Assembly: GCA_903915225.1 (NCBI GenBank)
Contig: CAIWSB010000089.1
Span: 5,835 to 69,834 of the forward strand
DNA length: 64,000 nucleotides
Source of the DNA: an uncultured Candidatus Woesearchaeota archaeon
Lineage (GTDB): Archaea; Nanobdellota; Nanobdellia; Woesearchaeales; B29-G15
Reading direction: 5' to 3'
Shown: one piece after another, positions 3,379-52,849 of the stretch
How the letters are laid out: the number at the start of each line of letters is the position of its first letter
Position numbering within the stretch: position 1 is the first letter of the stretch
Notes under the pieces: generated by a model
What the model saw: the letters and a program-made list of their open reading frames with translations, nothing else
The model's database searches: none
Told to the model about the DNA's origin: nothing
Made by a program: the position numbers and the translations under genes

Positions 3379-3379
3379 C

Positions 3380-8461: not shown

Positions 8462-9772
8462 ATGAAAACACCAAAAATACTCGGGATGGTTCTGGTTTTT
8501 ATCCTGGCAACAACCTGCGTCTGGGCTAGGTCCAATGTGCTCATAACCGAAGTGATGTACAACCCCATTGGGACTGAGAACGGGCTTGAGTATGTTGAGC
8601 TGTTCAACCAAAATGATGTGCCTGTCAATATAGGCGGTTGGATTATATCATCAAGCTCCTATGACACAGATGCCACAATACCAAACGGCACAGTAATCCC
8701 GGCAAAATCCCATTTCCTGATTGCCGATGAGGGTTTCGCATTGTCGAAACCTGCCTCATGGCCTCTTGCAGATCATGAAGAGGCGCTCACCTTAAGCAAT
8801 ACTGCGGGGGGTGTGGCCCTTGTTGGCTCAACTGTCGTGGAAGACAGCGTTGGGTGGGGTCCTGTGAGCAACCCGAAGCTCTTCGAGGGCAGCCCTGCCG
8901 CACTTGGAGATGAGGGGCTAAGCTTGACTCGAGAAAAAAGTGGCGATGCGTACATAGACACAGGCAACAACTCCAAAGATTTCACATATCAGCAGCCAAG
9001 CCCGAGCAACTCAATCGGGCAATTGGGGCCGAACAAGGATTTGGCAATAGAACTCACTATTGAGGATTCTGCTCCAGATATCCTCTATGTCAATGTAACT
9101 GATGAAGCACCTGAAAAGTCGGGCATACAAGTTTTCCCCGCGCCGGGGCAAACAAAGAACCTGGAAGTCGCTGTTGGGGTTCGTGATTTGTCCGGGGATA
9201 TAAAAGGGGTGGGGCTAGGGTTTGACAATATCTCACTAAACCTCACAGATGTGGTTAATGAAACCCAACCCACGAGAGTATATTCCGGGAAGATACCAAT
9301 AAATTACCACATTACCCCTGGATTACATTATATTACAGTAACTGCATGTGACTCCGGCGACTGCGCAACCTCAACAATTGGCATTGATATCGGTGAGGTG
9401 CTGGCCTTCAATGTCGACACCACAAAGATCTCAATTGACACAAATCTCGGCGGGTCTTACCAGCTGATTGGCGACCTAGACCCGAGCACTCCTGCAAAGC
9501 CCACTTTGCAAAACACTGGCAACAGCCCCCTTAATCTAATGGTTTCCACAAACGGACTGCAGCTAAACCAGAGCCAGATCCCTCCAAGTGCAATAAGTGT
9601 GCAAATATCCCGGGCAGAGCCAGTTGAGTTTTTTGAGCTCTCATCAAACTATCTCACAACAGAATCCCTGGCTGTGAAGGGCATACTGAGATTATCCTTG
9701 CGCTTTGATTTACCGAGAACCCTAGTGCCGGGAGTCTATAACGGGCACATCACGCTCACAGCTGTAAAATGA
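8462..9772 (+). CDS. Secreted protein with an N-terminal lamin-tail-domain (LTD)-like module.
   Basis: Signal peptide MKTPKILGMVLVFILATTCVWA. Following it is SNVLITEVMYNP...GLEYVELFNQNDVPVNIGGWII...SHFLIA, typical of LTD (PF00932-like). Confidence 0.6.
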   Translation: MKTPKILGMVLVFILATTCVWARSNVLITEVMYNPIGTENGLEYVELFNQNDVPVNIGGWIISSSSYDTDATIPNGTVIPAKSHFLIADEGFALSKPASWPLADHEEALTLSNTAGGVALVGSTVVEDSVGWGPVSNPKLFEGSPAALGDEGLSLTREKSGDAYIDTGNNSKDFTYQQPSPSNSIGQLGPNKDLAIELTIEDSAPDILYVNVTDEAPEKSGIQVFPAPGQTKNLEVAVGVRDLSGDIKGVGLGFDNISLNLTDVVNETQPTRVYSGKIPINYHITPGLHYITVTACDSGDCATSTIGIDIGEVLAFNVDTTKISIDTNLGGSYQLIGDLDPSTPAKPTLQNTGNSPLNLMVSTNGLQLNQSQIPPSAISVQISRAEPVEFFELSSNYLTTESLAVKGILRLSLRFDLPRTLVPGVYNGHITLTAVK

Positions 9773-16824: not shown

Positions 16825-16869
16825 TTTAAGTCGGTAATACCTTATACTAGTATTTAAAATTTTGCATAA

Positions 16870-18684
16870 TTAAATCAGGCCGAACAGTGAGCCAACTATT
16901 CCTCCAACAACACCGCAGGCAAACACAAGGGGCAAAAGTATTGGGGCGAGGGCAGGCACGGTGAGTGCAATAATCCCTCCAATAACCCCACCAACTATAG
17001 CGCCGAAAAGTGCATACTGTTGGGTCTTGTTTGAACTACCATCGCAGGCATCCCCCTTACCATCACTGTTAGTGTCCTTTTGGCTGGGATTGGATTTGTC
17101 AATGCAGTTGTCACAAGCATCCCCCACTTTGTCATCATCCCCATCCGCCTGATCCTGGTTGGGGGTTTCAATGCAGTCGTCGCAGGCATCACCCACCGAA
17201 TCTTTATCAGTATCACTCTGGTCTGCATTTTTTACAAAAGGGCAATTGTCGCAAACATCGCCAATCTGGTCCAAATCAGAATCCTTCTGATCAGGATTGC
17301 TAACATCAATACAATTGTCCATGGCATCGCTAATGCCATCCTTATCTATGTCTTCAGAAGAGGCTGGAGGTTTTATCGAAGATTGGTCATCGTTAACGAT
17401 TTCCTCAGCTGTTCCCCCCATTATTTTTGCGCAGGCCTCATTGCTGCATTCATTAATCTCTCCAAAAGATTTCCACTGCTGCTGGCTTCCGCCGCATTTT
17501 ATCTTGGACAGTTGAGAGCCCTTCACAAATCCTGATGGGGAGCGCTCGCAGCAGCAGCCCTGTTCACAGTATCCCGCATTGTCAAAATTCGCTGTGGTCA
17601 TCTGGGCGCAGGCATCATCACTGCTATAAAAGAAGAACCAATCGCGGGAGAGGCATTGCTGCCTATCTTTTGGACCCACTTCTATGGGGGAAACATATTG
17701 GGTTGTATCCTCTGGACAGCAAAGGCTGGCTGATTCGTAATACGTGCAGGCATTCTTTTTGGGGTTGAGGCAGCAGCCCCCCCCTTGAGTCATTTCTGGC
17801 TGCTCAACGAGGCACGCACCGGCAGCGCAACCCCAGGTGCATTTCTGCATTGCATCCATTGCACAGCTGCCGCCCAGGCAATAGAATTCCTGGATATGGC
17901 ACCTGTCACCTGAGCAGGAATCAACATATTCAAAGTTAGTTCCATCATCAGTGAGGACGCATTGGTCAGTCCAAGATTTGAGCCTGTCATTGCAGGTCCC
18001 CTGGACGAAAAAGTCCTTTGAATTGTCTGTCTCTGAACAATCCTGCCGAGGCTGCTCTGTAGCCATTGGAATCTCAATTGTTGTAAAAGTCCTGACCTTG
18101 CAAGCCCCATTCTCGCAGCCCAGCGGGCACCAATTGTCCTTTGGGAGGCATTGTGATTCTGGTTGACTATTGCACTCTCTGCCGTGGCAGCCTCCGCTAG
18201 GAGTTGCCGGACCGCAGTAGTATTCCTTTAAGCGATTGCCATCACAAGTGTCTGGAAACTCCTGTTCACTTCCTGTCCCAATGCCATCTGTGCAGAGCCC
18301 ATTAACCTCTGGAAAAATCCCTTCGTCAGTGTCATCGCAGCCAGGCGCGGGGTAAGTAATTTTTGTTCCGCTGGGCAGACAGGCGCCATTAAGACAGCCA
18401 TTGTCGCACCAGGCGTCGTTTGGCATGCAAAGCCCCTCTCGGCAGTAATACTCGGTTAGCCTCACAGGGTACCCGGCGGCTTCGTAGTCACACTTGTCAA
18501 TAACTGTTCGGGTGGCATCCTTGCACACGCCTTGCATATAGACATTGAATCCGCCATCCTCCTCACAGCATGTGCCACTGTTATCCAAATAACAGACCGA
18601 GTCCCCACAATCGCAGGCTGCTGCAATTCCTGCGCATAGTATCATAGCGAGCAACAGTGCCAAACAGAACCTCATTAATTTCAC
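16870..18684 (-). CDS. Secreted cysteine-rich protein with TSP3 repeats (a paralogue of the 15355-16824 gene) and a C-terminal TM anchor.
   Basis: Same architecture as the 15355-16824 gene. It has three CxDTDxG...C..GC..GAC modules, a shared GCC(V/L)NPK..CTY...CCP.D...GPKD..CL module, five TSP3-like repeats (DxDxDxxGDxCDNCP), and a C-terminal TM. Confidence 0.7.
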
Positions 18685-19693: not shown

Positions 19694-21261
19694 CTACTCA
19701 ACCAACATGCCCCACGGGCCAAATGGCCATTAGGGCAAATGAAGAAAAGACAGTTAATGAAAAGACATATTATATTCCAAAAGCTTTGAAGGAAGATCTT
19801 GAGACAGTTATTGCCACATTGTCTGATATTGATAAATTTGGCAAGGAAATGGGTCACAGAAATATCCTTCTGACAGGCCCGCCTGGGACAGGTAAAACAC
19901 TGGGCGCAAGATTTATCGCATACAAGACCGGCTTTGTTTACTATGACGGCAAGAAGCTCTCTTCTGCCTTTGACATAATCAAGGTTTTTGATGAGCTCAG
20001 AAAGCAGGTTAAGGAAGGCAAAAAGGCAATCCTGATGCTTGATGAAATCGATAGGTTCTCTAGCAGGGAAGAGAGCAACGACCCGGGCCAGGTGCAGATG
20101 CTCAACCAGCTTCTGGCAGAGCTGGATGGAGTGGAATCCAACAACGGCATATTTGTCATAGGAATGACCAACATGCCAAACAGGATTGACCCTGCGCTGC
20201 GAAGGCCGGGACGATTCGGCAAGGAGATTGAGTTCATGCCCCCTGATGAGCAGGGTAGGCTTGAGATTCTCAAGATCCATGCAAATGGCAAGGGTGGCCA
20301 TCAGTTCAAGTTTGACCCAAAAGATGTTGAATATTTGGCTTCTGTCACATATGGATATACAGGCGGTGACCTGCGCGGCCTGCTGGATGAGGCCATGGCA
20401 CGCGCCAACCTCAGAAACTCCCTAAATGTAAAGAGGGAAGATTTGGACTTTGCCAAAGTAAGGATTAAGCCTTCTGCAATAAGGGATATGCCATTCAAGG
20501 AACCAAAGATTACAGTTGATGATATTGGTGGGTATGCCCTACATAAGGACTTGCTTGGGCAAATAGTAAGCAGCAAGCAGGGCGGGAACATTTTGTTCTA
20601 CGGACCTCCTGGAGTTGGCAAGACCACATTTGCAGAAGCGCTGGCCAAGCAGTATGGGCTTAACCTCATTGTTGTCAGCGGTTCTGCACCATTGGACAAG
20701 TATGTTGGTGAAACCGGGAAGAAACTCGAGAAATACTTCGACAGGGCCAGGCAGCTCGCGCCGTGCGTGCTGCTTTTTGACGGCTTTGACGCACTGATTG
20801 AGCGCCGAGGATTTGTTTCATGGGCCTCAGATTGGACAGGGCTGATTGAATCTAAGCTAAGTTCACCCATGGATGGGGTTTATGTCATTGCCACAACAGA
20901 AAAGCCAGAGCTCATCGGGCCAACACTGCTGGAGAAGTTCAGGCACAGGGTTTACTTCCCAATGCCACAGGCGGAAGAGGTCGCTGAGATTTGGGCAAGA
21001 TACCTTCCCGATGGCATTAGCCCAGAGACTATCAAGGATGCCAACCCACGGCTCAATGGTCTTGATATTGCCAGGGTCATGGGCATGATTAAGGATTTCG
21101 GCATCGAACCTACTACAGAAATCCTGACACAACTTGTGACAGGCATAGAGCACGCAACAGACCTAGAACAGCCTTCGCTCACTTTCCGGGATGCCAATGG
21201 GGATTCCATACAAGATTACCGAAAGATTAAAGCCTTGCTAGGAGGGCAAAATGGCGCTTGA
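19690..21261 (+). CDS. Tandem AAA+ ATPase (two AAA domains, CDC48-like, no N-domain).
   Basis: Walker A GPPGTGKT and Walker B LMLDEIDRF, then a second GPPGVGKT and LLFDGFDAL. SRH-like GMTNMPNRIDPALRRPGRF. It overlaps the upstream gene by 4 nt (ATGA). Confidence 0.8.
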   Translation: MTTQPTCPTGQMAIRANEEKTVNEKTYYIPKALKEDLETVIATLSDIDKFGKEMGHRNILLTGPPGTGKTLGARFIAYKTGFVYYDGKKLSSAFDIIKVFDELRKQVKEGKKAILMLDEIDRFSSREESNDPGQVQMLNQLLAELDGVESNNGIFVIGMTNMPNRIDPALRRPGRFGKEIEFMPPDEQGRLEILKIHANGKGGHQFKFDPKDVEYLASVTYGYTGGDLRGLLDEAMARANLRNSLNVKREDLDFAKVRIKPSAIRDMPFKEPKITVDDIGGYALHKDLLGQIVSSKQGGNILFYGPPGVGKTTFAEALAKQYGLNLIVVSGSAPLDKYVGETGKKLEKYFDRARQLAPCVLLFDGFDALIERRGFVSWASDWTGLIESKLSSPMDGVYVIATTEKPELIGPTLLEKFRHRVYFPMPQAEEVAEIWARYLPDGISPETIKDANPRLNGLDIARVMGMIKDFGIEPTTEILTQLVTGIEHATDLEQPSLTFRDANGDSIQDYRKIKALLGGQNGA

Positions 21262-22252
21262 ACAGCTTACAGAAAGGAAGGTTGCGTTCAGGAGTGTTGC
21301 ACCAACATATATACTTGAGCTCTTGGCCAAGGGCCAGAAGTTCGTGCCATTCCAAGGCCAAATTGACCCTAATAGCCTGCCACCTGGATACACAATAATG
21401 GAGATGCAGTACAAAGGCACTACTTTCAAAGCCATTGTCCCGCAGACACTCCTGTATTTCATGGCAAATCCTGGCGAGGGTAACGCTGATGGGGCTCTTG
21501 ACGAGCTGGCTGAATTCTACCGCGAGATTGAGGGCGTTGAGAACAGCGCAATTGCAAATGGTGAGACAAACCTCCAATTGGGCAAGTTCGGGCAATGGGC
21601 CAGGGAATCCTACGGAACGTATCTAATCAATAAAATAATTAGAATTAGGGGAGGCCAGGATGAGGAAGGCCAACCGCTAAGCGAGCTGGATCCAAAGGTA
21701 ATGGAAAGGCTTGGGCTTAACGACCCTTATGTTCTTGAAAGGATTAAAGCAATTGCAGCTGTTAGGCTCGGCAAGCGCTCGGACCAGGTTCAGGCGCACG
21801 ATGTCGGAGCCCTGCTGAAACATGTGACAGTCAGGGGCACTGGAAAAACAGAGCAATTGAGCAGGCCTGAGCTTGAGAGGGTTGCCTGCCACTGCGGGAG
21901 CCACTACGAGCTCAAGGCAGAGTTTAGGAATGACCCAAATTACTCATATCATGTTGTTGGCTACCAAGGCTCTAGAACTGAGAAAAAAATTGAGATATCA
22001 ACATTTGACCCCAAGGTTAGCCTGCTGGAGAAGGAGATTGTTGACCACGTGAAGGAGAAGAACGGCGGTAAGTTAGGTCCGCATGATGTTCAGATGCTAA
22101 GGACAGTCACAAACCTGCGCTACATTGCCCCTGAGAACCCGCGGGCACAGTTAAGCACAACTCCTCACGCCACACCTGCTGCTGAAAATGAGTTGACAAT
22201 CTACAAAGTGGAAGAGGGGACACCGAAACCAGATGAAGTCAAGAAGGTGTAA
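21251..22252 (+). CDS. Hypothetical protein (333 aa), co-operonic.
   Basis: It overlaps the AAA gene end by 11 nt and is 5 nt from the next gene. I recognise no motif. Confidence 0.5.
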   Translation: MALEQLTERKVAFRSVAPTYILELLAKGQKFVPFQGQIDPNSLPPGYTIMEMQYKGTTFKAIVPQTLLYFMANPGEGNADGALDELAEFYREIEGVENSAIANGETNLQLGKFGQWARESYGTYLINKIIRIRGGQDEEGQPLSELDPKVMERLGLNDPYVLERIKAIAAVRLGKRSDQVQAHDVGALLKHVTVRGTGKTEQLSRPELERVACHCGSHYELKAEFRNDPNYSYHVVGYQGSRTEKKIEISTFDPKVSLLEKEIVDHVKEKNGGKLGPHDVQMLRTVTNLRYIAPENPRAQLSTTPHATPAAENELTIYKVEEGTPKPDEVKKV

Positions 22253-22257
22253 AACCA

Positions 22258-23870
22258 ATGCCGCTGCAAACCATTGCTGGAGAGGACAAGCAGCATGCTG
22301 AGCTGCTACGCCTACTCCAAGCTATGGGGGAAATAAGGCGCGGGGAAGAAACTGGAAACCCCAATCTGGAGAAAAGGGATAAATACCTTGGCCTGAGCCA
22401 GGAATTTGGCGAGCTTCTGGACAGCATGCCTGACATTAAGGTATCTGTTAAGTATCTTGTTCAGCGTGCTGAAAATGGAGAGGGAGCAGAGTATGACCCA
22501 TATTTTATTGAAGCCTGGGAACAGATTTACCCGGATTTTATTAATGTGCTCGAGAATCTGACTATCCAGCTAATGGGCGATGACCTTGCGGGTTTCAAGA
22601 GCACACACCACATTTGGAACGCGATAAAATATCTATCAACAGAAGGCAAGCCCTTGAAAGACAGCCTAAAAGTTTATGACACAATTCTCCCTGTTCAGCC
22701 ATCGCTTGATCTCAAGGGATTCACAGTCACGGGAATTGAACCAAGTGATGGTATCCTCACATTAGGGCGTGAACCGGATAAATTAGAAGATATAGTAAAG
22801 AGGGCTTCCCAAATCGGATTCAAACGCTTGAGGACCGAAATTGACCTAAACAATCCTACGGATTCTCAATCTGCTGTGCTGACGAATTACAGGAGAAAAG
22901 ATATCACACCGAATAAGGGTGTGGCTGCAAAGAAAAATAAGAAAGGCCTTTTCGAAAGGATATACAATCCTGTCACGGCGATCCCTTTAAATTTTATAAT
23001 TGGGGGGTTACCAGCTAAAATTCAGGTATGGATTAGTGAAAAATATAAGAAGAAAGGGCTAGAGATTAACTCAGATGTGTGTAGTGGATACAATTGGATG
23101 GGGGAAACTGTGATGAGTGCCATTGCAGCTGTGGTTTGCCCCTTAACATTAGGGTTATGGACGGTTGGCCCAACTGCAGGATATTTTGGGTATTCAATAA
23201 TAAGATTTATTTGGTCGGCTGTTAAAGATACAAGACAATTGGAAATGCTCTCTGGAAAATCCCTCTTCTGCCAGTTGAATTGGCAATACGTAATAAAGAA
23301 AATCCAAAAAAAGGAGCTAAAAAACCAGAGAACTGGGCCCTGATGGAGATTGAATTGGGGTCTGTTAGAAACGTAAATAGGGGCTTTGCCCAAATATATG
23401 AGCCAGTTTCAGAAAACCTCCACCCTTCGATGAGGAGATTGGCTGAGGTTCAATTGGATCAAAAGCAAGAGGATAACCTTGTGTATTCTCCAAAGAACCA
23501 CAACTACCAGGGAAGCCTATTCCGGGATGCCTTGCAGGTTCAAGGGAGTGGGGCTGTAGTGTTAAGGGAATTGGATAAATGCGACCTCTACAGGGATCTC
23601 AGTGCAATCACATTCTACAAAGTCATGACCGAACACAAATACAGTAAGACATCTGCATTGGTGTGCTACCAAAACAGGCGTTATGCAATCACCTTGGTAA
23701 CACCAAATGAATTTGAGCCAAAGGAGCTCCCAAAGCTATTGGCAGACACATCTAAGCCAATTGAAGAAAGAGTTGAGGGGCTTGCGAAATCATCAAGAGC
23801 ATTATACGCCCACGTGACCCAATTTGAAAAATGCCAGAAGACAGCAGACCTGGTCTGGAGGCAGGGCTAA
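22258..23870 (+). pseudogene. Frameshifted copy P1 of the tandem paralogue family, as two ORFs 22258-23343 and 23280-23870.
   Basis: The N-terminal ORF aligns with the N-terminal 360 aa of P2 and the C-terminal ORF with the C-terminal 190 aa of P2. They sit in different frames with a -1 shift near 23275-23285, which is not a homopolymer tract. Confidence 0.55.
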
Positions 23871-23871
23871 G

Positions 23872-25467
23872 ATGGCAATCCAGAAAATAACCGGAGAGGA
23901 CAAGCAGCATGCCCAGCTTTTGCAATTACTGGATGCAATAGAAAACATCAGAATAGCTGAGCAAAACGGAGAGGGTTCACCAAAGCAGAGGGATACGTAC
24001 CTTGGCATGAGCCAGGAACTTGGAGAGCTGCTGACAAGTATGCCCCAAATTAAAAGCCAGCTCAATAATCTTAAGGCTCTTTTTGAGAAAGGCGAAGGAA
24101 AGAGCTACGACCCATATTTTGGAGATGTATTCCGAAAGACAAGCCCTGAAATTACCACCGGGCTTGAGAGCCTCACAATCCAACTCTTGGGAGATGACCT
24201 GGCTGGATTTGAAGACACCCACCATATGTGGAATGCAGTTAAATATCTCACATCAACTGGCAAACCAAAGGCAGAGGTGCTGAAGATATTTGATCAGATT
24301 GTGCCAATGCAGCCCTCACGCAGTTACAAGGGGCTGGATGTGGATGGCAAAGAGCCAACTGAGGAAATTCTATTTGTCGGGCGACCGCCTAAAGAGTTTT
24401 TGAGTTTAGCAGCAAGGGTTGGGAATGCTGGGTTTAAGACCCTTCGGGCAGAAATCGATATGAATCATCTTACTGAAGAAGAAAGAGCTATGTTCTCTAA
24501 GTGTAAAAACTTGAGGGTTCCTGCGCAAGGGGAAGATAAAAATAAATCTCGCGTAATCAGGTTTTTGGACCGGGTTTACAACCCTGCCACCAGAATTCCA
24601 ATACATTTTGTTGTAGGGGGGCTGCCAAAAAAGGTTCAGAAATGGGCAGTAGATCAGCTCAATCTTGCTGCAAAAAACAATTATATTTATGAGGAGGATA
24701 CAACATTAGCCAATATAATTGGGGAAGGTGTATTAAGTGCAGGTGCTGCTGTCGCATGTGGGCTGACTTTAGGGCCTTTAACATGCATCCCTGGAGCGGT
24801 ATATTTTGCTTACACTGGCTTTAAGGGACTTGTTCAATTTATACAAGAATCGGATGCTTCTGACCGCCTTATCTGCGGAAACCTGTTCTGGAAGCTACCA
24901 CTCCTGCCATTTGAATTGAAAATTCGCAGGGAGGAAAAGGAAGGAAAAAGTAAAGCCAAGGAAGATTGGGCGCTCATTGATTTTAAGCTAGAGGGTTATT
25001 ATCGAAAGGTAAGCAAACAGGACAAGCACAACTTCCATCCTGTGTTGGACAGCCTCGGAGCAATAACAGTTGATGCCACAGTTGAGGAAAACCTAGTCCA
25101 TACACCAAGCAACCACAACTCGCAGGGTTACAATTTCAGGGAAGCTCTCTTAGCAAAAACCCCACAGTTAGAGCAATGCGTGCTCAACAGGGAATATGAC
25201 GCAGTGACCTCATTTAATGTCTTGCCTGTGGACAATTACTCAAAAATTTCTGCCTTGGTGTGCTTCAAAGGTCAGCGCTATGCCATAACAATGGTTACGC
25301 CCGGGGAATTCAGGCCTCAAGAGTTGTCGGCACTGCTTGCTGATTCAACAAAGCCGATAGGAAAGAGGCTAGAAGGAATTGCTAAGAATTCAGGCGCAAT
25401 ATACGCTCACATTACTCAGTTCACCAGCTGCCAGAAGACAGCTGATTTAGTTTGGAGGAAGGATTAA
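23872..25467 (+). CDS. Paralogue P2 of the novel family (uncharacterised, ~530 aa, central hydrophobic segment).
   Basis: Shared motifs: LTIQLLGDDLAGFEDTHHMWNAVKYL, VGGLPKKVQ, a hydrophobic stretch, NHNSQGYNFREAL, SALVCFKGQRYAITMVTPGEF, YAHITQF..QKTADLVWR. I take the start at MAIQKITGEDKQHA (23872), 48 nt downstream of the ORF-track start at 23824. Confidence 0.65.
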   Translation: MAIQKITGEDKQHAQLLQLLDAIENIRIAEQNGEGSPKQRDTYLGMSQELGELLTSMPQIKSQLNNLKALFEKGEGKSYDPYFGDVFRKTSPEITTGLESLTIQLLGDDLAGFEDTHHMWNAVKYLTSTGKPKAEVLKIFDQIVPMQPSRSYKGLDVDGKEPTEEILFVGRPPKEFLSLAARVGNAGFKTLRAEIDMNHLTEEERAMFSKCKNLRVPAQGEDKNKSRVIRFLDRVYNPATRIPIHFVVGGLPKKVQKWAVDQLNLAAKNNYIYEEDTTLANIIGEGVLSAGAAVACGLTLGPLTCIPGAVYFAYTGFKGLVQFIQESDASDRLICGNLFWKLPLLPFELKIRREEKEGKSKAKEDWALIDFKLEGYYRKVSKQDKHNFHPVLDSLGAITVDATVEENLVHTPSNHNSQGYNFREALLAKTPQLEQCVLNREYDAVTSFNVLPVDNYSKISALVCFKGQRYAITMVTPGEFRPQELSALLADSTKPIGKRLEGIAKNSGAIYAHITQFTSCQKTADLVWRKD

Positions 25468-25468
25468 C

Positions 25469-26665
25469 ATGGATAACTTAGGAAATTATGTTACTATTGA
25501 ACTCACTGACAAGGACGTGCAGGTGCACATTGACAGCATTGTCAAATCTATGGAGGCCATACGCCAGGATGCCCTCACAGAGCGGGGCTTCAGCCAGGAT
25601 CAGGCTGATGATTACGTGCACCTGGCAACCAGGCTTGCATCAGCCATGGAAGGCTTGGCAAACGAACAGTTGGGCAAGAAAGTCAGGAGCCAGATTACAA
25701 TTGCCAACAGCAACCCCAAGCTGGTACTCTTTGACAGCCTCCAATCAGATTACTGGGGCAAAAAGAACAAGGAATTTTTACGAGGGCTTGCCCAGATTAC
25801 TGTCCAGTTCATGGGTGATGATTTCCGCGGCTTGGGCGACACGCACCATTTCTGGAACGCAATAAAATACCTGGGATGCGTTGGGCTCCCATCGGAGCAG
25901 CGCTCTGTTGTGCTTTCAACAATTGTTCCTTTCCATACCCCTGATGGCCTAAAGCCAAAAATCAAGAAGGGCAAGGGCGACGGGCTAACTGTGGTTGTGC
26001 CAAAGGCAGGCGCACTACCTGATGCAGTTGATGCTGCCAAGAATTACGGCTTTACTGCTGTGAGATTTAAAGCAAATCATCGAGAGCTGGCAGAGATAAA
26101 GAAGCAATATCCATCTATTAATTTAGTTGGAGTTGAGAACCAGACCGCAAACGACGCAGATGTAATTGCCGAGGTTAGGGTTGCCAGCATTGGGGAAAAT
26201 GTCAAGCACAATTACCATGCCAAAATTTGTGAAATTGCAGAGCTCCAGCTGCCTGATGCAGCTGAACAGAACCTGACTTGGAGCATGAGGAACCATAACA
26301 CCCAAGGAAAGGATTTTGAGAAGGCAATAAGAGCACTTTTGGAGAAGGGCATTGAGTACCGGTCCCATCTAAACAGGGAGTGCAATGCATTATCATTATT
26401 CAACAGGACCGAGTTTGGGCCTTGGCAGAAGGTCTCTGTTGTGGTGTGCTTCCCAGGGCAAAGGTATGCTTTGACTTATGTATCTCCAAGAGAGACTTCA
26501 CTGCCAGATTTCCAGCCAATAAGCACTATCCTTGCTGCAAGTGAAAAACCGCTTGAAAGGAGAATCGATGAAGAGCTTGCAACTGCATTAAACGCAGAAT
26601 ATGCCCACATAGGCCACTATGTAAAAGGTGCCCTGGCAGGGGACTGGATTTACAGGAGGGACTAG
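25469..26665 (+). CDS. Paralogue P3 (short form, lacks the central hydrophobic segment).
   Basis: QFMGDDFRGLGDTHHFWNAIKYL, NHNTQGKDFEKAI, VVCFPGQRYALTYVSP, YAHIGHY. Confidence 0.65.
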   Translation: MDNLGNYVTIELTDKDVQVHIDSIVKSMEAIRQDALTERGFSQDQADDYVHLATRLASAMEGLANEQLGKKVRSQITIANSNPKLVLFDSLQSDYWGKKNKEFLRGLAQITVQFMGDDFRGLGDTHHFWNAIKYLGCVGLPSEQRSVVLSTIVPFHTPDGLKPKIKKGKGDGLTVVVPKAGALPDAVDAAKNYGFTAVRFKANHRELAEIKKQYPSINLVGVENQTANDADVIAEVRVASIGENVKHNYHAKICEIAELQLPDAAEQNLTWSMRNHNTQGKDFEKAIRALLEKGIEYRSHLNRECNALSLFNRTEFGPWQKVSVVVCFPGQRYALTYVSPRETSLPDFQPISTILAASEKPLERRIDEELATALNAEYAHIGHYVKGALAGDWIYRRD

Positions 26666-26685
26666 GAGAAGCGCTTTGAGGCGAT

Positions 26686-28332
26686 TTGATGCAAAAGATA
26701 GACCTGATACAAGCCAACGGGGAATTGCTCTCCTCAAGGGAAGAGCTTGGTGATATTATCACCAGGATGGAGAACTTAAGGACTAATTTTAAGGATAAGG
26801 ATGAGCAAAAAAACCAGTACCTTGTGCTGGCCGGGCAGGCTGGCGAACTTATCCAGAAGATTTCTGGTCTGGAGGCAAGATTAGACCGGCTAATCAAAAA
26901 AGCTGAGAGAGATTTTACTACCAGGGGCTATGACTCATCCAGAGATAAGCTTTGGTATGCTGCTGAACCTGGTTTCATGAAAGATCTCGAGATGGCGACA
27001 GTCCAGTTGCTGGGGGATTCCTACCGCGGAACAATAGATAGGCACCACATCTGGAGTGCCGTGAAAGTCCTGGCCGGCCAAAACCTCCAAAGGCGTGAAA
27101 TGATTGAGCTTTATGACACAATCCTGCCAAGAAATTCGCAATATTTCATTGTAACCGGAAACCTCAGGAAATTGTTTGGGCTGCCTAGGAGATCCACAAT
27201 AAAGGGAGGCGTGCTGGAAATAGACTGGGGGGTCAAGGATATTGATGAGATTGTAAAAAAGGCTGGGAAAATGGGTTTAGAAAAGGCGGGGTTTTGGTTT
27301 GACGACGTTAAACAGTTGTATAACCCTCAAATTCCAGGCATCATAGTAAAAGTCCAATCCAAAGGCTTGCCCGTGTCAGATATAAGGCTGCTAAAGGGCT
27401 TGTTCAAACAGAAATGGCTAACATACCCCTTTCTTGGTGCCCTCCCTAAGAAAATCCAATCTACAATTGCAAATTACTTAAACAATAATGATATGAGAAA
27501 ATTGTACTCACCAAGTGCTGCTTCGCAGTGGAGCCTCGGTATTGAGGCCGTTGGGCTAACTGCTGCCGGAATTACATTAGCTGTCACTGTAAGCCCTTGG
27601 CTTGCATTCCTAATTGGAGGAGGCTTAGTGGGAGGGTTGTTTATACGTGGCCCATTGCTTGGTCTAGGAGGTTGCAACGATTATCTGCAAAGTAGAAACA
27701 AGAACGACTCCGATGACTGGGGCCACTGCAGCTACTGCTTCCGCAAGCAGGCTGACAAACCATTAGGGAGCGGCTTCCTTAAGCCATTTTTCTGGCCAGT
27801 CGAAAAATTAGTCGAATCCAATAGGTCACCAAATGCAATGGGAAACCCCCGCTGGGCTGTTGCTGAGATTCCCCAGAAAGCTCAGGCAACCCAGTACCTC
27901 AACAATTACCACAGCACACTTTGCAAGATGGCAGGAACTCTTTTTGAACCAAGCCTTGAGCAGGATCTTGTGCTAAGGCCAGAGAACCACCACAATGCGG
28001 GGAAGGCGTTTGAGGCTGCGCTGAGAGCTTTGCCTGACTTCCCAAAGACTGCTTTAAGACTTTCTGAAAGGAGCAGAGAATACAACGGGATGGCGGTTTA
28101 CGAAGAAGAAATTGGAACAGAGCAAAGCAAGCTCTCTGCCTTTGTCTGCTTCGCCAACGAAAGGTATGTTGTCACAGTTGTTAAGCGAGGGAATACTGGT
28201 GTTGATAGTATTATTCAATCACTCTCTGCTGGAGATACAAGAGGGCTAACAAATGCAGTGAATGCAGATTATTTGCACCTCACACATTTCAAGGAAGGAA
28301 AGAAGGTTGAGGATTTTGTGTATCTGAGGTAA
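26686..28332 (+). CDS. Paralogue P4.
   Basis: VQLLGDSYRGTIDRHHIWSAVKVL, LGALPKKIQ, a long hydrophobic segment, ENHHNAGKAFEAAL, SAFVCFANERYVVTVV, YLHLTHF. Confidence 0.65.
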   Translation: MMQKIDLIQANGELLSSREELGDIITRMENLRTNFKDKDEQKNQYLVLAGQAGELIQKISGLEARLDRLIKKAERDFTTRGYDSSRDKLWYAAEPGFMKDLEMATVQLLGDSYRGTIDRHHIWSAVKVLAGQNLQRREMIELYDTILPRNSQYFIVTGNLRKLFGLPRRSTIKGGVLEIDWGVKDIDEIVKKAGKMGLEKAGFWFDDVKQLYNPQIPGIIVKVQSKGLPVSDIRLLKGLFKQKWLTYPFLGALPKKIQSTIANYLNNNDMRKLYSPSAASQWSLGIEAVGLTAAGITLAVTVSPWLAFLIGGGLVGGLFIRGPLLGLGGCNDYLQSRNKNDSDDWGHCSYCFRKQADKPLGSGFLKPFFWPVEKLVESNRSPNAMGNPRWAVAEIPQKAQATQYLNNYHSTLCKMAGTLFEPSLEQDLVLRPENHHNAGKAFEAALRALPDFPKTALRLSERSREYNGMAVYEEEIGTEQSKLSAFVCFANERYVVTVVKRGNTGVDSIIQSLSAGDTRGLTNAVNADYLHLTHFKEGKKVEDFVYLR

Positions 28333-28336
28333 CAAG

Positions 28337-30025
28337 ATGAAGCGACAAGTTGTCACAAAGGCACCGCCGAAAACAGGCGCAAGCCATGATTTGATCAAGC
28401 TACTTGACTCAATGCAAGCGCTAAGGGAACAGCAGCGCATCTCAAAGCTGGACTCAATTAAACTCGATGATTACCTTGTGGCAGCTGGTGAGCTGGGTGC
28501 TTACCTTGAGCAGTATGAAGGGAGCGACTTTAAAAAAATTGCCACAGCTATCGCAGGAAATGCCAACCTCAGGTTTTATGATGCAGATAGGGACTTGGCA
28601 TGGAGGGTAATTGAGCCCGAGATGTTAGAGCTTCTAGATGGAATAATTGTGAAAGCCATGGGGGACGACTTCCGCGGGCTGGAAGACAAGCACCACTTCA
28701 TGAATGCTGCAAAATGCGTAATGTGCAAAGACTGGGAGCTGGAAAAAAGGATTGAAGTCTATGACACTGTACTCCCTGTTGTGGATTCAAGTCAAGCACT
28801 TAACATTGCAAATAATATTGGCCAAATTAGCGGAGACACTCTAAAGATTAATTTAGACGCCAAGGATTTGGATACAAGGATAAAGCAGGCAAAAGATGCG
28901 GGGTTCAGCAAAGTTGTAATCAGATTTGATTATACTAAGGATAAGGAGAAGATAATAAAATTAAAGAGAATTTATAACGGAACAATTACTGATGTAGCGC
29001 AACCAAGCGGACCAAATAAGAATACAATTTTTAAAAACCGCCTGTTAGGGGTGCCTGCATTCCTGCTTGTAGGCGGTCTGCCAGCCTCGTTGCAGAAAAG
29101 GATTCAAAACGCGTTTACTATGAGAGGTTATAGCTCATTTAATAGTGAGTCGACAACAGCCGCTAACGCACTATTAGAAGGAGCAGCTTCTTTCTCCCTT
29201 GGTTTTTGGGCATTGCACCTTGGCCCAATTGTTTACGTGCCACTATTCGCATACTTTGGATTAGCAGCAATACCCCGAATTGCAAGTTTGATGAAAAATT
29301 CAGACATAGCTGTAAAAGACAAGAATGTTTTTGGCAAGGCAAAAGCCAGACCAATAGGGTCGCTAATTGCCAAGATTCCGCTTTATCCTGCGGAACAAAT
29401 ACTCAATCTAGCGTGCGGGAAGGTCAATTATTACCCAAAAGAATACACAATTAACTTTAACCAAGCTACACCATTGGGTGCCTTTGATAATCGTTTCATG
29501 AGATTAGCCCGAGCTCAAGCAACAACTGCCGCTCAGAAAGCGCTCCCTGAAAAGCCTCAGTTAAAAATCCCTCCGGCACCCAATTATCATCCACTTATGG
29601 ATAAGGCAGCATTAATTGCAGTTAACGCTGAGGCTGAGGAGAGCCTGCGATATAGGGTTACGGCACACCACAGCCAGGGTAACCTGTTCCGAGATGCAAT
29701 GAACCCTAAAGGATTGGAAGGGTTTGGAAGATACCTGGATAAGCCCAGAAACTCGCTCACATTTTTCTCGACTTCAGAGCAACAACCTTACAGAAAGTTC
29801 TCAGCATTGGTTTGTTTCTCAGGGGAACGCTATTCAATCACTCTTATCGGTAAGAATCAAATTGCAGCGCAGGCAATCTCCGAGAAGCTATCTGATGGCA
29901 AAAAGCCTCTTGATGCCAGGCTAAAAGAGATTGCGGAATTGGCCGAAGCTGATTACGCACACCTCACTTATTACAAACAGGGACAGAAAGCAGAGGATCT
30001 GATCTGCAGGGGGGTTGCTGCATGA
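28337..30025 (+). CDS. Paralogue P5.
   Basis: KAMGDDFRGLEDKHHFMNAAKC, VGGLPASLQKRIQ, a hydrophobic segment, AHHSQGNLFRDAM, SALVCFSGERYSITLIG, YAHLTYY. Confidence 0.65.
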   Translation: MKRQVVTKAPPKTGASHDLIKLLDSMQALREQQRISKLDSIKLDDYLVAAGELGAYLEQYEGSDFKKIATAIAGNANLRFYDADRDLAWRVIEPEMLELLDGIIVKAMGDDFRGLEDKHHFMNAAKCVMCKDWELEKRIEVYDTVLPVVDSSQALNIANNIGQISGDTLKINLDAKDLDTRIKQAKDAGFSKVVIRFDYTKDKEKIIKLKRIYNGTITDVAQPSGPNKNTIFKNRLLGVPAFLLVGGLPASLQKRIQNAFTMRGYSSFNSESTTAANALLEGAASFSLGFWALHLGPIVYVPLFAYFGLAAIPRIASLMKNSDIAVKDKNVFGKAKARPIGSLIAKIPLYPAEQILNLACGKVNYYPKEYTINFNQATPLGAFDNRFMRLARAQATTAAQKALPEKPQLKIPPAPNYHPLMDKAALIAVNAEAEESLRYRVTAHHSQGNLFRDAMNPKGLEGFGRYLDKPRNSLTFFSTSEQQPYRKFSALVCFSGERYSITLIGKNQIAAQAISEKLSDGKKPLDARLKEIAELAEADYAHLTYYKQGQKAEDLICRGVAA

Positions 30026-31557
30026 GAACTGTTGTCATCCAAGCCCCGGAGAGAGACAAGTCTCTAGTGAAGCTGCTAGACTCCATGGAAGACATCCGGC
30101 GACAAGAACTCGCAAAAGGAGAATCTGAAAGCACCCAGCAGAACGAGTATCTCATACTGGCTGACAGACTGCGCTCGGAACTAAAACCAAGATTGGGCGT
30201 TGCAGAGGACTTCGATAAGATTGTTGCCATTTTGGCTGATAAACCCCATCTCATGCATTATGATGTATCCAGCGAAAGCATGTGGCGGCAGGTAGAGCCG
30301 GAGATATCTGAGCTTTTAGATAGAGTCTTAATTGAAGCAATGGGTGATGATTTCAGAGGAGTTGCTGACAAGCAACATGTGCTCAATGCAGCAAAGTGCG
30401 AAATGTGCGCCAATTGGCCACTGAAAACCAGGCTTGAGGTTTACGATTATGTCAGACCGGTGCTTGACTCAAGCAGAACCCTAAACTCAATCACAAATGT
30501 GGGGGAGATAATTGGCAACGGAACTGAAATTCTAATTAAGGGAATTCCAAGGGACCTTGAAGAAAAAATCAGGCAAGCTGGGGAGATGGGCTTCAAATAT
30601 CTCATATTGAGGGCAGATTATTATGAAAACAGGAAAGATATAAAAAAAATGAGGGGGAGAAAGGGATGGGAGATAAAGGGCATGGGTGCCCAGAGAAGCC
30701 CCGATAGATCTTATACCCCGAGAATCATGCAACGCCTCTATCCATTGATAGGAGCACTTCCTGCCTCGTTGCAAAGAAGGGTGTATATTAATCTAGAGAA
30801 AAAGGGGATAACCTATGATGAGATGACTCCGAGTATGCGTAATTCTGCCGCATCAATAGTTACTGACATGATAACTGCAGGAGGTTTGATGCTGCTTACC
30901 CAAAACCCTTTGGTTTATGTTCCTGTTTTTGGATTAATTGCAGTGGATTACCTTAGGCTATTGTACTCATTTGGAACAAGCATGTTTAGGAACAACATCG
31001 GCAGAAACCTCAATAAGCCAATGGGCTCCCCTGTTGCAAAAATAGTCCTATTTCCAATTGAGCTTATCCTCGGCGGGGTTTACGGCAAGGTTGCGTACAA
31101 TCCCTTAGAGATTAAGATACACTTAGACCAGGATGGCAAAGAGGAGCAGACTGCACCAAACCTCCATCCAATAATGGAAAAGCTGGCATCTAGTGAAGAT
31201 GGGGCCAGCAACTTTGAGCTGGCGGAAAAATTGAAGGCGCAAGCCCCTGGAACACCAATTCTCACTAGCCAAAGCAATAAAAATGATACTTTCACCTTGT
31301 ATAATATAGTCTCCGATTGTTCCCCGTTCAATAAGCTCTCAGCACTGGTCTGCCTCAGCGGCGAACGTTATGCAATAACAATTATTGGGACAAATGAAAT
31401 CAATTTGGAGCAAGTTTCTGAGACGCTTTCTGATGCAAAACTCCCGATTGAGCAAAGGCTATGTGAGATTGCAGAGAGGAGTGGAGTGCGCTTTGCACAT
31501 TTAACACACTACAGCCAGGGTAAGAAAACAGAGGATATGGTGGCTTATTCCAATTAG
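30022..31557 (+). CDS. Paralogue P6.
   Basis: EAMGDDFRGVADKQHVLNAAKC, IGALPASLQRRV, a hydrophobic segment, SALVCLSGERYAITIIG, FAHLTHY. It overlaps P5 by 4 nt. Confidence 0.65.
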   Translation: MRTVVIQAPERDKSLVKLLDSMEDIRRQELAKGESESTQQNEYLILADRLRSELKPRLGVAEDFDKIVAILADKPHLMHYDVSSESMWRQVEPEISELLDRVLIEAMGDDFRGVADKQHVLNAAKCEMCANWPLKTRLEVYDYVRPVLDSSRTLNSITNVGEIIGNGTEILIKGIPRDLEEKIRQAGEMGFKYLILRADYYENRKDIKKMRGRKGWEIKGMGAQRSPDRSYTPRIMQRLYPLIGALPASLQRRVYINLEKKGITYDEMTPSMRNSAASIVTDMITAGGLMLLTQNPLVYVPVFGLIAVDYLRLLYSFGTSMFRNNIGRNLNKPMGSPVAKIVLFPIELILGGVYGKVAYNPLEIKIHLDQDGKEEQTAPNLHPIMEKLASSEDGASNFELAEKLKAQAPGTPILTSQSNKNDTFTLYNIVSDCSPFNKLSALVCLSGERYAITIIGTNEINLEQVSETLSDAKLPIEQRLCEIAERSGVRFAHLTHYSQGKKTEDMVAYSN

Positions 31558-50513: not shown

Positions 50514-52001
50514 TTATACCACCATGCTCATTCCCAGCTCCTTAAGTCTCTTAAGGAGGTCCTTTTCCTGCTCGAAGTTAGTAATCTCAGTGATAAGCGA
50601 TAGGTTCTTCTTCAGCCCAATGTTTGTACCTTCAGGGGTTTCAATAGGGCAAAGCCTGCCGAAGTGCGTTGGGTGCAGGGCTCGTGCTCGGAAGTTCTCC
50701 TGCTGTGAACTCAACGGAGAGACAACACGCTGGAGGTGAGAAAGCAAATCAAGGTAGTTCCTGCGCTGGATCCTTTGTGAGATTCCTTTCCTTCCACCCA
50801 CCCATGAACCTGTGGCCATTGAACTCTGGATTCTGGAAGTGAGCAGTTTCTCCCGGATTATTACTTTCACAGATGGGAACTTGCCACGCTTGACAATCCT
50901 TTGGAAGTTGTAGAGCAAATCGCTGATGAGCACTTTTAGGTTAACCCTGAAAAGATCTGCTAGCAGGTCCCCTGATTGCTTGACCCTCTTGTTCATGTAG
51001 TGGTCCTTGTCATCAGGTGACAGCATGCCACGCTCAACATAAATAAACTTCTTCATCATTTTACAAATATTATAAGCCTTGAGTTTTCTGGATTTATCAT
51101 CAATTCCAATGTTTGGCAGCAAATACTTGTCCAGCATCTCTGTGATTCTCTCAAGCCTAATCTGCCTTGACTGGGTGATGCCTGCCTTCTTGGCCAGGAA
51201 ATCCATTGCGTCTTCTGAAGTCTTGATGTCAGAGAATTCATAGAGGTTGATGTAAACCTCATCAAGGACTTTGTCTGCTGAAACAGCCTTCATTATCTCC
51301 TCATCCTTGAGCATTCCCAATGCCTTCACTACAATTATCAATGGGACTCTCTGGAGCCTCACAAATGAAATATAGAACAGGCCGTCCTTCAGTCTCTCCA
51401 TGTTGTGGAGAATCTTATATGAGCCTCGCTCAGAGAATACTCGCCCGGTTAGTTCGCTAGGGCCTGTGGAGCTACGCTCAACCATGAAATGGTTGCTGGC
51501 CAAATCCTCAACTTTAACCAGGACTTTTTCTGAGCCGTTGATTATGAAGTACCCTCCAGGGTCATCTTTATCCTCGCCAGCCTCAACAAGCTGCTCTGGC
51601 TTGAGGCCATGCAGGTTGCAGTACTTCGACTTGAGCATTATCGGTATCTTACCAACCTGAGTTTCAAAATTCTCGCGCTGTGTTCCGTTAATGTATGAGC
51701 TCACGGTGAGATAGATAGGAGCAGAATAACTGATTTTCCTAATCCTAGCCTCAATTGGCATGATGGGGCGCTTGGAGCCATCAGCTTCTGTGATCTCGGG
51801 TTTGCCCACCTTAATTTTCTCAAGTCGGATTTTGAACTCCTCAATGTTGGCGGGGATAATTGTTGGTGTTATTTCTCGGTTTTCATCAATTATCCTCTGG
51901 AGCTCGAAGTCGATGAAATTGTTGAAGGAGTCAATGTCCGACTGGACAAAGGATTTGTCTTGAAAGTATCTCTTAAGTAAAATTCGACCTTCTTTAAGCA
52001 C
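50514..52001 (-). CDS. rpoB2: DNA-directed RNA polymerase subunit B'' (N-terminal part of the split RpoB).
   Basis: Homology to the N-terminal half of RpoB (...SDIDSFNNFID...). The likely start is GTG at 52001, 4 nt after the rpoH stop. The ORF-track start at 52085 would overlap rpoH by 92 nt. Confidence 0.85.
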   Translation of the reverse strand: MLKEGRILLKRYFQDKSFVQSDIDSFNNFIDFELQRIIDENREITPTIIPANIEEFKIRLEKIKVGKPEITEADGSKRPIMPIEARIRKISYSAPIYLTVSSYINGTQRENFETQVGKIPIMLKSKYCNLHGLKPEQLVEAGEDKDDPGGYFIINGSEKVLVKVEDLASNHFMVERSSTGPSELTGRVFSERGSYKILHNMERLKDGLFYISFVRLQRVPLIIVVKALGMLKDEEIMKAVSADKVLDEVYINLYEFSDIKTSEDAMDFLAKKAGITQSRQIRLERITEMLDKYLLPNIGIDDKSRKLKAYNICKMMKKFIYVERGMLSPDDKDHYMNKRVKQSGDLLADLFRVNLKVLISDLLYNFQRIVKRGKFPSVKVIIREKLLTSRIQSSMATGSWVGGRKGISQRIQRRNYLDLLSHLQRVVSPLSSQQENFRARALHPTHFGRLCPIETPEGTNIGLKKNLSLITEITNFEQEKDLLKRLKELGMSMVV

Positions 52002-52230
52002 GGGACACCACCCTGTAGAAGTGTGCCACACCAGCAGTTGGGCTTCTCCTTTCAATCTTAATAATATCCCCGGATTCGGGGTCAAGATCCTTTATTGCAG
52101 GATCAGAAATGAAAATCCTCGGGAGATGCTCTCTCCTCAGGTTGTTCTTTTCTAGCAACTGTTTTGCCTCGGAGTCCGAGAGTTTAGTGTGGTTTGGGAC
52201 AAGTATGTGTTTCGCAGGTTTTTTTTCCAT
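51994..52230 (-). CDS. rpoH: DNA-directed RNA polymerase subunit H (Rpb5-like).
   Basis: 78 aa protein containing HILVPNHTKLSDSEAKQLL...DPAIKDL...GDIIKIERRSPTAGVAHFYRVV. Confidence 0.85.
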   Translation of the reverse strand: MEKKPAKHILVPNHTKLSDSEAKQLLEKNNLRREHLPRIFISDPAIKDLDPESGDIIKIERRSPTAGVAHFYRVVSRA

Positions 52231-52259
52231 AATCCATCGTTCCCTTGCTGATAATCAAA

Positions 52260-52364
52260 TGGGTCGGACGAGATTTTCAAGTCCCGGCCGGACGGCGAGG
52301 ACAATTCGAACTCGCGACCTCTTGATTAAAAGTCAAGCGCTCTGCCAAGCTGAGCTACCGACCC
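52260..52364 (-). tRNA. tRNA-Lys (anticodon UUU) with a putative ~31 nt non-canonical intron directly after the T-loop.
   Basis: Minus strand: GGGTCGG-TA-GCTCAGCTTGGCAGAGC-G-CTTGA-CTTTTAA-TCAAG-AGGTC-GCGAG-TTCGAAT-[TGTCCTCGCCGTCCGGCCGGGACTTGAAAAT]-CTCGT-CCGACCC-A. Confidence 0.65.
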
Positions 52365-52383
52365 ATTTTTTAAATAGGTTATA

Positions 52384-52491
52384 CGCCCCGGCCGGGATTT
52401 TTGCTCCCCGTAACTTTGTGTCGCGGGAAAGATTCGAACCCGGGTCAAAGCCTCGACAGGGCTTTATGATAGGCCGACTACACCACCAGGG
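52384..52491 (-). tRNA. tRNA-Asp (anticodon GUC) with a putative ~35 nt non-canonical intron after the T-loop.
   Basis: Minus strand: GCCCTGG-TG-GTGTAGTCGGCCTATCAT-A-AAGCC-CTGTCGA-GGCTT-TGAC-CCGGG-TTCGAAT-[CTTTCCCGCGACACAAAGTTACGGGGAGCAAAAAT]-CCCGG-CCGGGGC-G. The D-arm closely resembles known archaeal tRNA-Asp. Confidence 0.65.
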
Positions 52492-52621
52492 CGTGCTCAC
52501 TTTGTACCGTATCCTCTACAAACTGTGCGTTCGCGTAGTTTACAGAAGATAAGATACCCCATTTTCCAATGTGATTTCTAGTTCCTTTATAAAGTTTTCT
52601 CCTCATATTGAGGAGAATGAG

Positions 52622-52775
52622 TCCCTGCCCCCGGGTTTTCTTGGTACCCCCTTGGTTGGGCACCATGTCGAACCAGGAACCTTTCGGTTTCAGCTGACTG
52701 CTTTTCATTCCTAAGCCACGCGGCGCAGTCGAACAGTTTCTACAGCCGAACGCTCCACCATTGAGCTAGGCAGGG
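52622..52775 (-). tRNA. tRNA-Tyr (anticodon GUA) with a canonical 37/38 intron (~50 nt) plus a second insertion (~30 nt) after the T-loop.
   Basis: Minus strand: CCCTGCC-TA-GCTC-AATGGTG-GAGC-G-TTCGG-CTGTAG-[AAACTGTTCGAC...CAGCTGAA]-A-CCGAA-AGGTT-CCTGG-TTCGACA-[TGGTGCCCAACCAAGGGGGTACCAAGAAAA]-CCCGG-GGCAGGG-A. The C1:G72 pair is characteristic of archaeal tRNA-Tyr. There is one T-stem mismatch in my hand fold. Confidence 0.55.
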
Positions 52776-52849
52776 ATAGAGAGGAAAATCCAGAACTGTT
52801 TATAAAGGTTGTGGGTAAGTCGAGGGCAAACGCGAAACATTAACTTCAA

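Follow-up and report, generated by a model that had tools for sequence, protein, structure and literature searches.

Predicted bulge-helix-bulge introns at T-loop position 59/60 in clustered tRNA-Tyr, tRNA-Asp and tRNA-Lys genes of a Woesearchaeota archaeon

Can three neighbouring tRNA genes, each interrupted by a short insert in the T-arm, still give rise to ordinary tRNAs and, if so, at which nucleotides would the inserts be cut out? The question is raised by a stretch of 64,000 nucleotides from an uncultured Candidatus Woesearchaeota archaeon (GCA_903915225.1, contig CAIWSB010000089.1, positions 5,835 to 69,834, forward strand; hereafter the window), in which an earlier reading made from the letters alone (hereafter the sequence-only reading) had proposed a cluster of Lys-UUU, Asp-GUC and Tyr-GUA genes at 52260-52775. 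The cluster was borne out, with three minus-strand genes over this span in the order Tyr(GUA), Asp(GUC), Lys(UUU), and the Lys, Asp and Tyr genes all carry an insert of 31-35 nucleotides (nt) between T-loop nucleotides 59 and 60. As set out below, the three inserts are very probably protein-spliced bulge-helix-bulge (BHB) introns at T-loop position 59/60, splicing and junctions alike being predictions. The genes and their segments are as follows.

52775..52622, minus strand: tRNA-Tyr(GUA) with two introns, called by ARAGORN once the T-loop insert is deleted; exon 52775-52740 (36 nt), anticodon-loop intron 52739-52689 (51 nt), exon 52688-52667 (22 nt), T-loop intron 52666-52636 (31 nt), exon 52635-52622 (14 nt).
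52492..52384, minus strand: tRNA-Asp(GUC) with a single intron, a perfect cloverleaf in spliced form; exon 52492-52433 (60 nt), intron 52432-52398 (35 nt), exon 52397-52384 (14 nt).
52364..52260, minus strand: tRNA-Lys(UUU) with a single intron, accepted by ARAGORN in spliced but not in raw form; exon 52364-52305 (60 nt), intron 52304-52274 (31 nt), exon 52273-52260 (14 nt).

The sequence-only reading had placed the inserts at one common position directly after the T-loop; the position is indeed the same in all three genes, but it lies within the T-loop, 1 nt ahead of the 3' T-stem strand. The strings that it gave for Lys and Asp are the inserts listed here shifted by 1 nt, and this shift leaves the spliced product unchanged because a T stands at both junctions, whereas its 30-nt Tyr string was 1 nt short: with a 30-nt cut the T-loop would have 8 nt or the T-stem a mismatch, and the BHB-consistent cut removes 31 nt, ATGGTGCCC...CCAAGAAAA. 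The tRNA identity elements comprise C1-G72 and A73 in Tyr and the discriminator G73 in Asp, and CCA is encoded by none of the three genes. Both the C1:G72 pair of Tyr and its second intron at 37/38 had been recognised in the sequence-only reading (about 50 nt there, 51 nt here).

Standard tools applied to the raw window did not reveal this cluster. The sole ARAGORN call was a 75-nt 'uninterrupted' tRNA-Asp at 52418-52492; tRNA-Tyr was undetected by both ARAGORN and Rfam, and tRNA-Lys appeared in Rfam as a partial match only (model positions 7-64, 41.5 bits), in an alignment that falsely takes the intron segment CUCGCC for the 3' T-stem strand. When the inserts were deleted in silico at 59/60, ARAGORN returned complete Lys, Asp and Tyr cloverleaves, the last including its anticodon-loop intron, in agreement with the earlier claim that normal cloverleaves require the removal of a segment from each gene. 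The Asp call might be taken at face value, as an uninterrupted 75-nt gene followed by spacer, and Rfam does align this stretch across the full length of its model. Its score of 24.9 bits nevertheless does not reach the gathering score of 29, and the alignment has flagged non-canonical pairs in two stems, acceptor and T, whereas the spliced alternative has 7/7 acceptor and 5/5 T-stem pairs in a pattern shared by about 50 orthologues, and we give the uninterrupted gene practically no credence. The sequence-only reading had allowed that tRNA finders might prefer uninterrupted genes with other boundaries, and this sub-threshold Asp gene was the only such case that ARAGORN offered.

Other classes of interrupted tRNA gene do not describe the three loci. 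A split or permuted arrangement was rejected, as the two halves of all three genes are contiguous and colinear, and so was a group I self-splicing tRNA intron, which has at least 200 nt with a P1-P9 core and usually sits in the anticodon loop, against inserts of 31-35 nt here. The Rfam intron families gave no match to the inserts even at E values up to 10. Elsewhere in the window no further tRNA with an intact T-arm and an acceptor partner within 320 nt upstream was found, nor any further Rfam tRNA match at E up to 1.

In a canonical intron at 37/38, nucleotide 32 pairs with intron position -3 and both 3-nt bulges are cut 3' of their second nucleotide. At the T-loop inserts, the exon-intron helix consists of U54-U55-C56-R57 (here G57) paired with intron positions -3 to -6, and the 3' bulge (3 nt, abutting the T-stem) of intron positions -2 and -1 (AA) together with nucleotide 60. 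A BHB scan ranked the 59/60 solution top for both Asp and Tyr, and for all three precursors RNAfold returned the T-stem, two strands of about 7 nt and the intron hairpin that a BHB needs, with both 3-nt bulges predicted for Lys. The individual structures are as follows.

52636..52666, minus strand: Tyr T-loop intron, strict 3-4-3 hBHBh'; UUCG/AGAA with 3/4 pairs (G57.A); inner helix of 8 base pairs (bp).
52398..52432, minus strand: Asp T-loop intron, strict geometry; UUCG/CAAA with 3/4 pairs (C56.A); inner helix of 6-7 bp.
52274..52304, minus strand: Lys T-loop intron, relaxed BHB; UUCG/UGAA with 4/4 pairs; inner helix GUCC/GGAC.

The BHB motif that the sequence-only reading had expected at the junctions was found, with strict geometry for Asp and Tyr and relaxed geometry for Lys, in which the inner helix is displaced by a U.U mismatch and the motif is therefore of the relaxed kind. 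The Asp intron has A rather than G at -5, the sole such case among the 75 introns compared below. The AAAA(T) ends noted earlier as common to the inserts are real and receive a structural explanation, because two of the A's pair with U54/U55 and two lie in the 3' bulge. The reported complementarity to the adjacent exons, CTCGCC with GCGAG in Lys and CGGGG with CCCGG in Asp, likewise exists, but neither pairing is the BHB helix: the Lys CTCGCC is a decoy partner of the 5' T-stem strand, and in Asp the inner hairpin arises from the pairing of CGGGG with UCCCG of the same intron.

The comparison set comprised the window and 80 related loci (671 kb), which were searched with a scanner that imposed three conditions: a T-stem of 5 bp enclosing a T-loop together with an insert, whose sequence was left free; an acceptor stem of 7 bp; and a spliced product that ARAGORN accepts. 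The scanner gave 77 hits in the real sequence, none in the reversed sequence and none in each of three shuffles. Inserts at 59/60, ranging from 14 to 141 nt, were present in at least 72 further tRNAs from 55 of the 80 related loci, a count that is an underestimate given that the first scanner demanded T at position 55; counted per isotype with C55 allowed, the insert occurred in about 50 of 62 Asp and 22 of 56 Lys orthologues. The carriers mostly belong to the syntenic Asp-Lys pair ahead of rpoH, with a few called Tyr, Ser or other isotypes, although these isotype calls are partly unreliable for scanner matches with extra introns. Occupation of the same site in all three genes, which had seemed striking from the sequence alone, is accordingly unexceptional in this lineage, and the idea of a lineage marker stands insofar as 59/60 is a hot-spot throughout the Woesearchaeota but fails at the level of the single gene, where presence differs from one gene to the next. 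In L001, the closest relative (83 % RpoB'' identity), the Tyr T-loop is intact (UUCAAGU), tRNA-Asp carries two introns, one in the anticodon loop and one at 59/60, and tRNA-Lys carries a 22-nt 59/60 intron unrelated to the 31-nt one of the window.

A further regularity concerns the intron tail and its exon partner. In the last six intron nucleotides, on which the scanner placed no sequence constraint, Y was found in 64, G in 74, A in 63, A in 70, A in 70 and R in 72 of 75 introns. The central helix of these introns has all four pairs in 60 cases and three of four in the other 15 (92.6 % of central-helix cells paired by the tool's count), while shifted registers fail, and nucleotide 57 covaries with intron position -6, A57 occurring with U in 44/49 and G57 with C or U in 18/26. 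For the whole structure, T-stem and central helix together, none of 500 shuffles reached the observed values. The geometry was strict in 18 of the 75 introns, 43 had extra unpaired nucleotides at the inner junction, and 14 had no nearby inner helix, which makes them relaxed hBH motifs with a well-defined bulge on the 3' side only. The same pairing rule can be read in relatives at other sites, namely in canonical Lys introns (tail AAAG-NN|A) and in D-loop introns (exon GCCU, intron GGGC-AA|). The BHB reading of the inserts is supported by this comparative evidence as well as by the in-silico splicing and the BHB geometry.

The intron bodies are unrelated to one another while the exons are conserved, as would be expected because intron sequence is removed. 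Mean intron similarity within genomes (0.31) was not above that between genomes (0.28), and within-genome transposition of introns in the style of the Thermoproteales was rejected on these values, which show no sign of recent copying. That the mature tRNA instead keeps the insert, in the form of an additional arm or a larger T-loop, is hardly conceivable in view of insert lengths from 14 to 141 nt and bodies unrelated even between close relatives; in addition, pairing of nucleotides 54-57 with the insert would block the T-loop and its contact with the D-loop, a part of established tRNA architecture.

It might also be argued that the three genes are pseudogenes, disrupted by insertions with loss of function, as standard tools call only one of them and all three BHB motifs are imperfect. 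The exons, however, are intact and fold perfectly, the inserts retain the constrained 3' tail and the covarying pair, and 55 of 80 related genomes share the interrupted arrangement, at a locus that is syntenic and presumably essential. The window contains no second gene for Lys, Asp or Tyr. Loss of function is, on this evidence, a very improbable explanation.

Several points nevertheless weigh against BHB introns at 59/60. None of the three window introns forms a perfect hBHBh' (C56.A in Asp, G57.A in Tyr and a 4-nt 5' bulge in Lys), so all three are relaxed BHB variants and not perfect motifs. No EndA or RtcB gene was found when 54 open reading frames (ORFs) of the 64-kb window were compared with Pfam, and EndA is for this reason assumed from the literature for this genome. 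Furthermore, judged by sequence alone, cuts at 56/57, 57/58 and 58/59 would likewise leave a 7-nt T-loop, and the inserts could then be BHB introns whose tail supplies the 3' part of the mature T-loop. The tail G-A-A-A-R-U does resemble that part of the loop: a cut at 56/57 would yield UUCAARU, to be compared with the UUCAAGU of the intact L001 Tyr gene, and in the window Tyr a cut at 58/59 yields UUCGAAC and one at 59/60 UUCGACC, both of them acceptable loops. We consider these alternative splice sites improbable all the same, as the conserved, covarying pairing sets intron positions -6 to -3 against nucleotides 57 to 54 and leaves precisely 3 nt between this helix and the T-stem. The established BHB rule (a cut after the second nucleotide of a 3-nt bulge abutting the outer helix) then places the 3' cut at -1|60, whereas the alternatives would lie within the helix. 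The preference for 59/60 rests on this cleavage rule, because only there do both cuts lie in bulges.

Under the preferred reading, splicing at 59/60, the outer helix of the precursor would be the T-stem (49-53/61-65), and the central 4-bp helix that of U54-U55-C56-R57 with intron positions -3 to -6. The 5' bulge would be made of nucleotides 58 and 59 with the first intron nucleotide, the 3' bulge of the last two intron nucleotides with nucleotide 60, and the inner helix would be the intron's own hairpin. EndA would then cut both bulges after the second nucleotide (59|+1 and -1|60), an RtcB-type ligase would join the exons, and the T-loop, and hence the tRNA elbow, could form only after splicing. 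The exon half of the motif being the nearly invariant T-loop UUCR, any insert ending in Y-G-A-A-A-R should be spliceable from any tRNA, which would explain why 59/60 has been occupied repeatedly in the lineage.

From here a wider proposal suggests itself, namely that 59/60 is a lineage-wide, self-perpetuating intron 'docking site' in Woesearchaeota, in which YGAAAR inserts are spliced by an alpha4-type EndA, a type formerly thought to need strict motifs, and which is possibly kept by selection; we put this forward tentatively, as a possible but rather unlikely account. Selection may act in that the introns break the sequence from the T-arm to the 3' end that integrating elements use as an attachment site, or it may act through a maturation checkpoint, splicing being forced ahead of elbow formation. 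The L001 Tyr gene, which lacks a T-loop intron and stands beside a duplicated 3' fragment, is compatible with the attachment-site idea, but it is only an anecdote.

The related loci gave some further observations on these tRNA genes. In L001, positions 3158-3240 and 3333-3410 form a tandem duplicate of the Tyr 3' part (variable loop to 3' end) with about 45 nt downstream of it; the copies lie approximately 175 nt apart and look like an attachment-site scar, and the Tyr gene concerned is the one without a T-loop intron. The Lys(UUU) orthologues carry introns in the D-loop after GCCUGG (tail GGGCAA|), in the anticodon stem (about 29-31), at 37/38 and at 59/60, with up to three or four per gene, a load comparable to that of the Thermoproteales (L007:676-850, L018:366-644, L012:3531-3758, L022:252-416 and others). 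U at tRNA position 55 (pseudouridine 55) is almost universal; a T-loop of UCCGAAU, with C55, was seen in L020:3641-3730, L026:3619-3750, L031:566-672 and about 15 other Lys orthologues.

The second intron of tRNA-Tyr differs in site and form.

52689..52739, minus strand: Tyr anticodon-loop intron, 51 nt, placed at 37/38; placement at 38/39 yields an identical product.

The BHB scan found no strict BHB for this intron, and its BHB is atypical, with 3/4 pairs in the central helix and a conserved tail NCAG-CYG-NN|A that contains three extra nucleotides. We retain 37/38 as its site since seven Tyr orthologues conserve both G37 and A38. In the window and in L001, L019, L020, L028, L053 and L067, the intron shares a conserved 3' part, GGAUGA-N(3-5)-GCAG-N-CAGCYG-NN|A38, and its inner helix covaries, being CUGC/GCAG in most, CAGUU/AACUG in L053 and AUGCA/UGCAU in L067. 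The CAGCYG element is also able to pair with exon nucleotides 29-34, a pairing that would compete with the anticodon stem, and the nGAC...GGAUGA arrangement resembles a kink-turn.

The cluster lies directly upstream of RNA polymerase genes, and the features around it are listed below.

51994..52230, minus strand: rpoH, 78 aa, Pfam RNA_pol_Rpb5_C (E = 1.2e-24).
52799..52806, minus strand: TATA-like box TTTATAAA, 24-31 nt upstream of Tyr position 1; present as sequence, its promoter role being predicted.
52586..52593, minus strand: TATA-like box TTTATAAA, 94-101 nt upstream of Asp position 1; present as sequence.
52510..52551, minus strand: leader hairpin of 14 bp with four G.U pairs.

Between the Tyr and Asp genes (window 52493-52593) there is a leader of about 70-95 nt, depending on the transcription start, and since its hairpin contains four G.U pairs, it folds on the minus strand alone. 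The box at 52586..52593 probably serves as promoter for a transcript of leader, Asp and Lys that may extend into rpoH; in most related loci a TATA box stands at about -100 to -122. The interval between the tRNA-Lys 3' end and the rpoH start (52231-52259, minus strand) measures only 29 nt and has no TATA-like box, so the leader-Asp-Lys unit and the RNA polymerase operon may share a transcript.

The Woesearchaeota relatives have a conserved hairpin RNA of about 83 nt between the TATA box and tRNA-Asp, consisting of a 5' strand AAUCUUUCU-N-UAG, an apical part of about 33 nt and a 3' strand CUA-N-AGAAGGAUU, with 18-21 nt from there to Asp (for example L034:3428-3510, L020:3418-3500 and L036:53-135). 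A covariance model seeded with 20 copies, on a hand-drawn helix, matched once in each of about 41 of the 80 loci at E < 0.1, in every case immediately before Asp and on the strand of the tRNAs; the best match had E = 9e-13, and about 21 of the approximately 41 matched loci were outside the seed alignment. The window hairpin fits this model weakly (6.1 bits, E = 0.42), RNAalifold returned no structure for the leader upstream of Asp, and no Rfam family matches the conserved hairpin. With this hairpin, the Asp-Lys transcript may carry a new structured leader or a new small RNA at its 5' end.

Genes of archaeal type surround the cluster. Downstream of it the gene order is rpoH, split rpoB''/rpoB', rpoA', rpoA'', L30e/L7Ae, NusA-KH and S12 (Rpb2 and Rpb1 domains), and the other flank holds FttA/aCPSF1 and a proteasome beta subunit. 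The best relatives of RpoB'' are from Woesearchaeota/Nanoarchaeia genome bins (83 % identity for the top one, 62-69 % for others), and the window is therefore from a DPANN archaeon of this group (Woesearchaeota/Nanoarchaeia). A 147-aa ORF at 52109-52552 (plus strand) was judged spurious, being antisense to rpoH and the tRNAs and without a Pfam match. Farther away, seven consecutive plus-strand ORFs of 333-562 aa at 21251-31557 have no Pfam match at E up to 1e-5; near them are two thrombospondin-repeat proteins (15355-18684) and a lamin-tail-domain protein (8462-9772).

The value of these observations is moderate and lies in better annotation of DPANN genomes and in relaxed BHB substrates that form a natural series. 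All three genes, among them that for tRNA-Asp(GUC), normally the sole decoder of its codons, are missed or mis-called by ARAGORN and the Rfam tRNA model. The same is true of dozens of related genomes, so that the 'missing tRNAs' of DPANN genome bins are at least partly an annotation artefact. A survey of DPANN archaea that included one Woesearchaeote had reported incompletely predicted tRNA sets and suspected such an artefact, and described an alpha4-type EndA with an extra 'L3' loop together with raised tRNA gene disruption (Kaneta et al. 2018, PMC5829648). In this series some 75 independent intron bodies share a single splice site, a fixed 6-nt tail and one covarying pair, and it would be useful for the recognition of relaxed BHBs by the little-studied DPANN endonucleases and for tRNA intron gain and loss. 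Our literature search, with partial journal coverage, found no paper on a 59/60 hot-spot or a YGAAAR tail in Woesearchaeota.

Several known systems resemble the one described here. The canonical intron at 37/38 also sits in a 5-bp stem with a 7-nt loop, is cut between loop nucleotides 6 and 7, has four 5' loop nucleotides paired with intron positions -3 to -6 and is presumed to use the same enzymes; it differs in lying in the anticodon arm, where the exon half varies with the anticodon in contrast to the invariant UUCR at 59/60, and the 59/60 intron, unlike it, blocks T-loop formation until it is removed. The Thermoproteales are reported to have recurrent non-canonical BHB sites (20/21, 29/30, 30/31, 59/60 and others) and several introns per gene (Sugahara 2008 and Fujishima 2010, as cited in PMC4090602 and PMC4033280); these are, however, TACK archaea with an (alpha-beta)2 EndA, in which similar introns in different tRNAs indicate transposition. 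The red alga Cyanidioschyzon merolae is reported to have T-arm BHB-type introns (PMC3728597, PMC9602550), sometimes together with D-arm and anticodon introns, but in a eukaryotic nuclear genome and with another endonuclease complex.

A further likeness is to ARMAN-2 (Ca. Micrarchaeum), which shares position 59/60, membership of the DPANN superphylum and short introns. The statement in the sequence-only reading that T-loop introns are known from some archaea is confirmed by these precedents: 59/60 is listed among the known non-canonical intron positions (Yoshihisa 2014, PMC4090602), and in ARMAN-2 the pre-tRNA-Cys(GCA) has a 13-nt intron at 59/60, of the relaxed hBH form and cleaved in vitro by the organism's own epsilon2 EndA, while the pre-tRNA-Pro(GGG) has introns at 53/54 and 59/60 with strict hBHBh' (Fujishima 2011, PMC3239211). 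As a kind, 59/60 introns are already published, and the Woesearchaeota cluster adds a further member. It differs from the ARMAN-2 case in lineage (Woesearchaeota) and in that the enzyme of ARMAN-2 is an epsilon2 EndA, whereas alpha4 with the L3 loop is reported for other DPANN, and also in that 59/60 is occupied in most tRNA-Asp orthologues of an order-level group, with a conserved YGAAAR tail.

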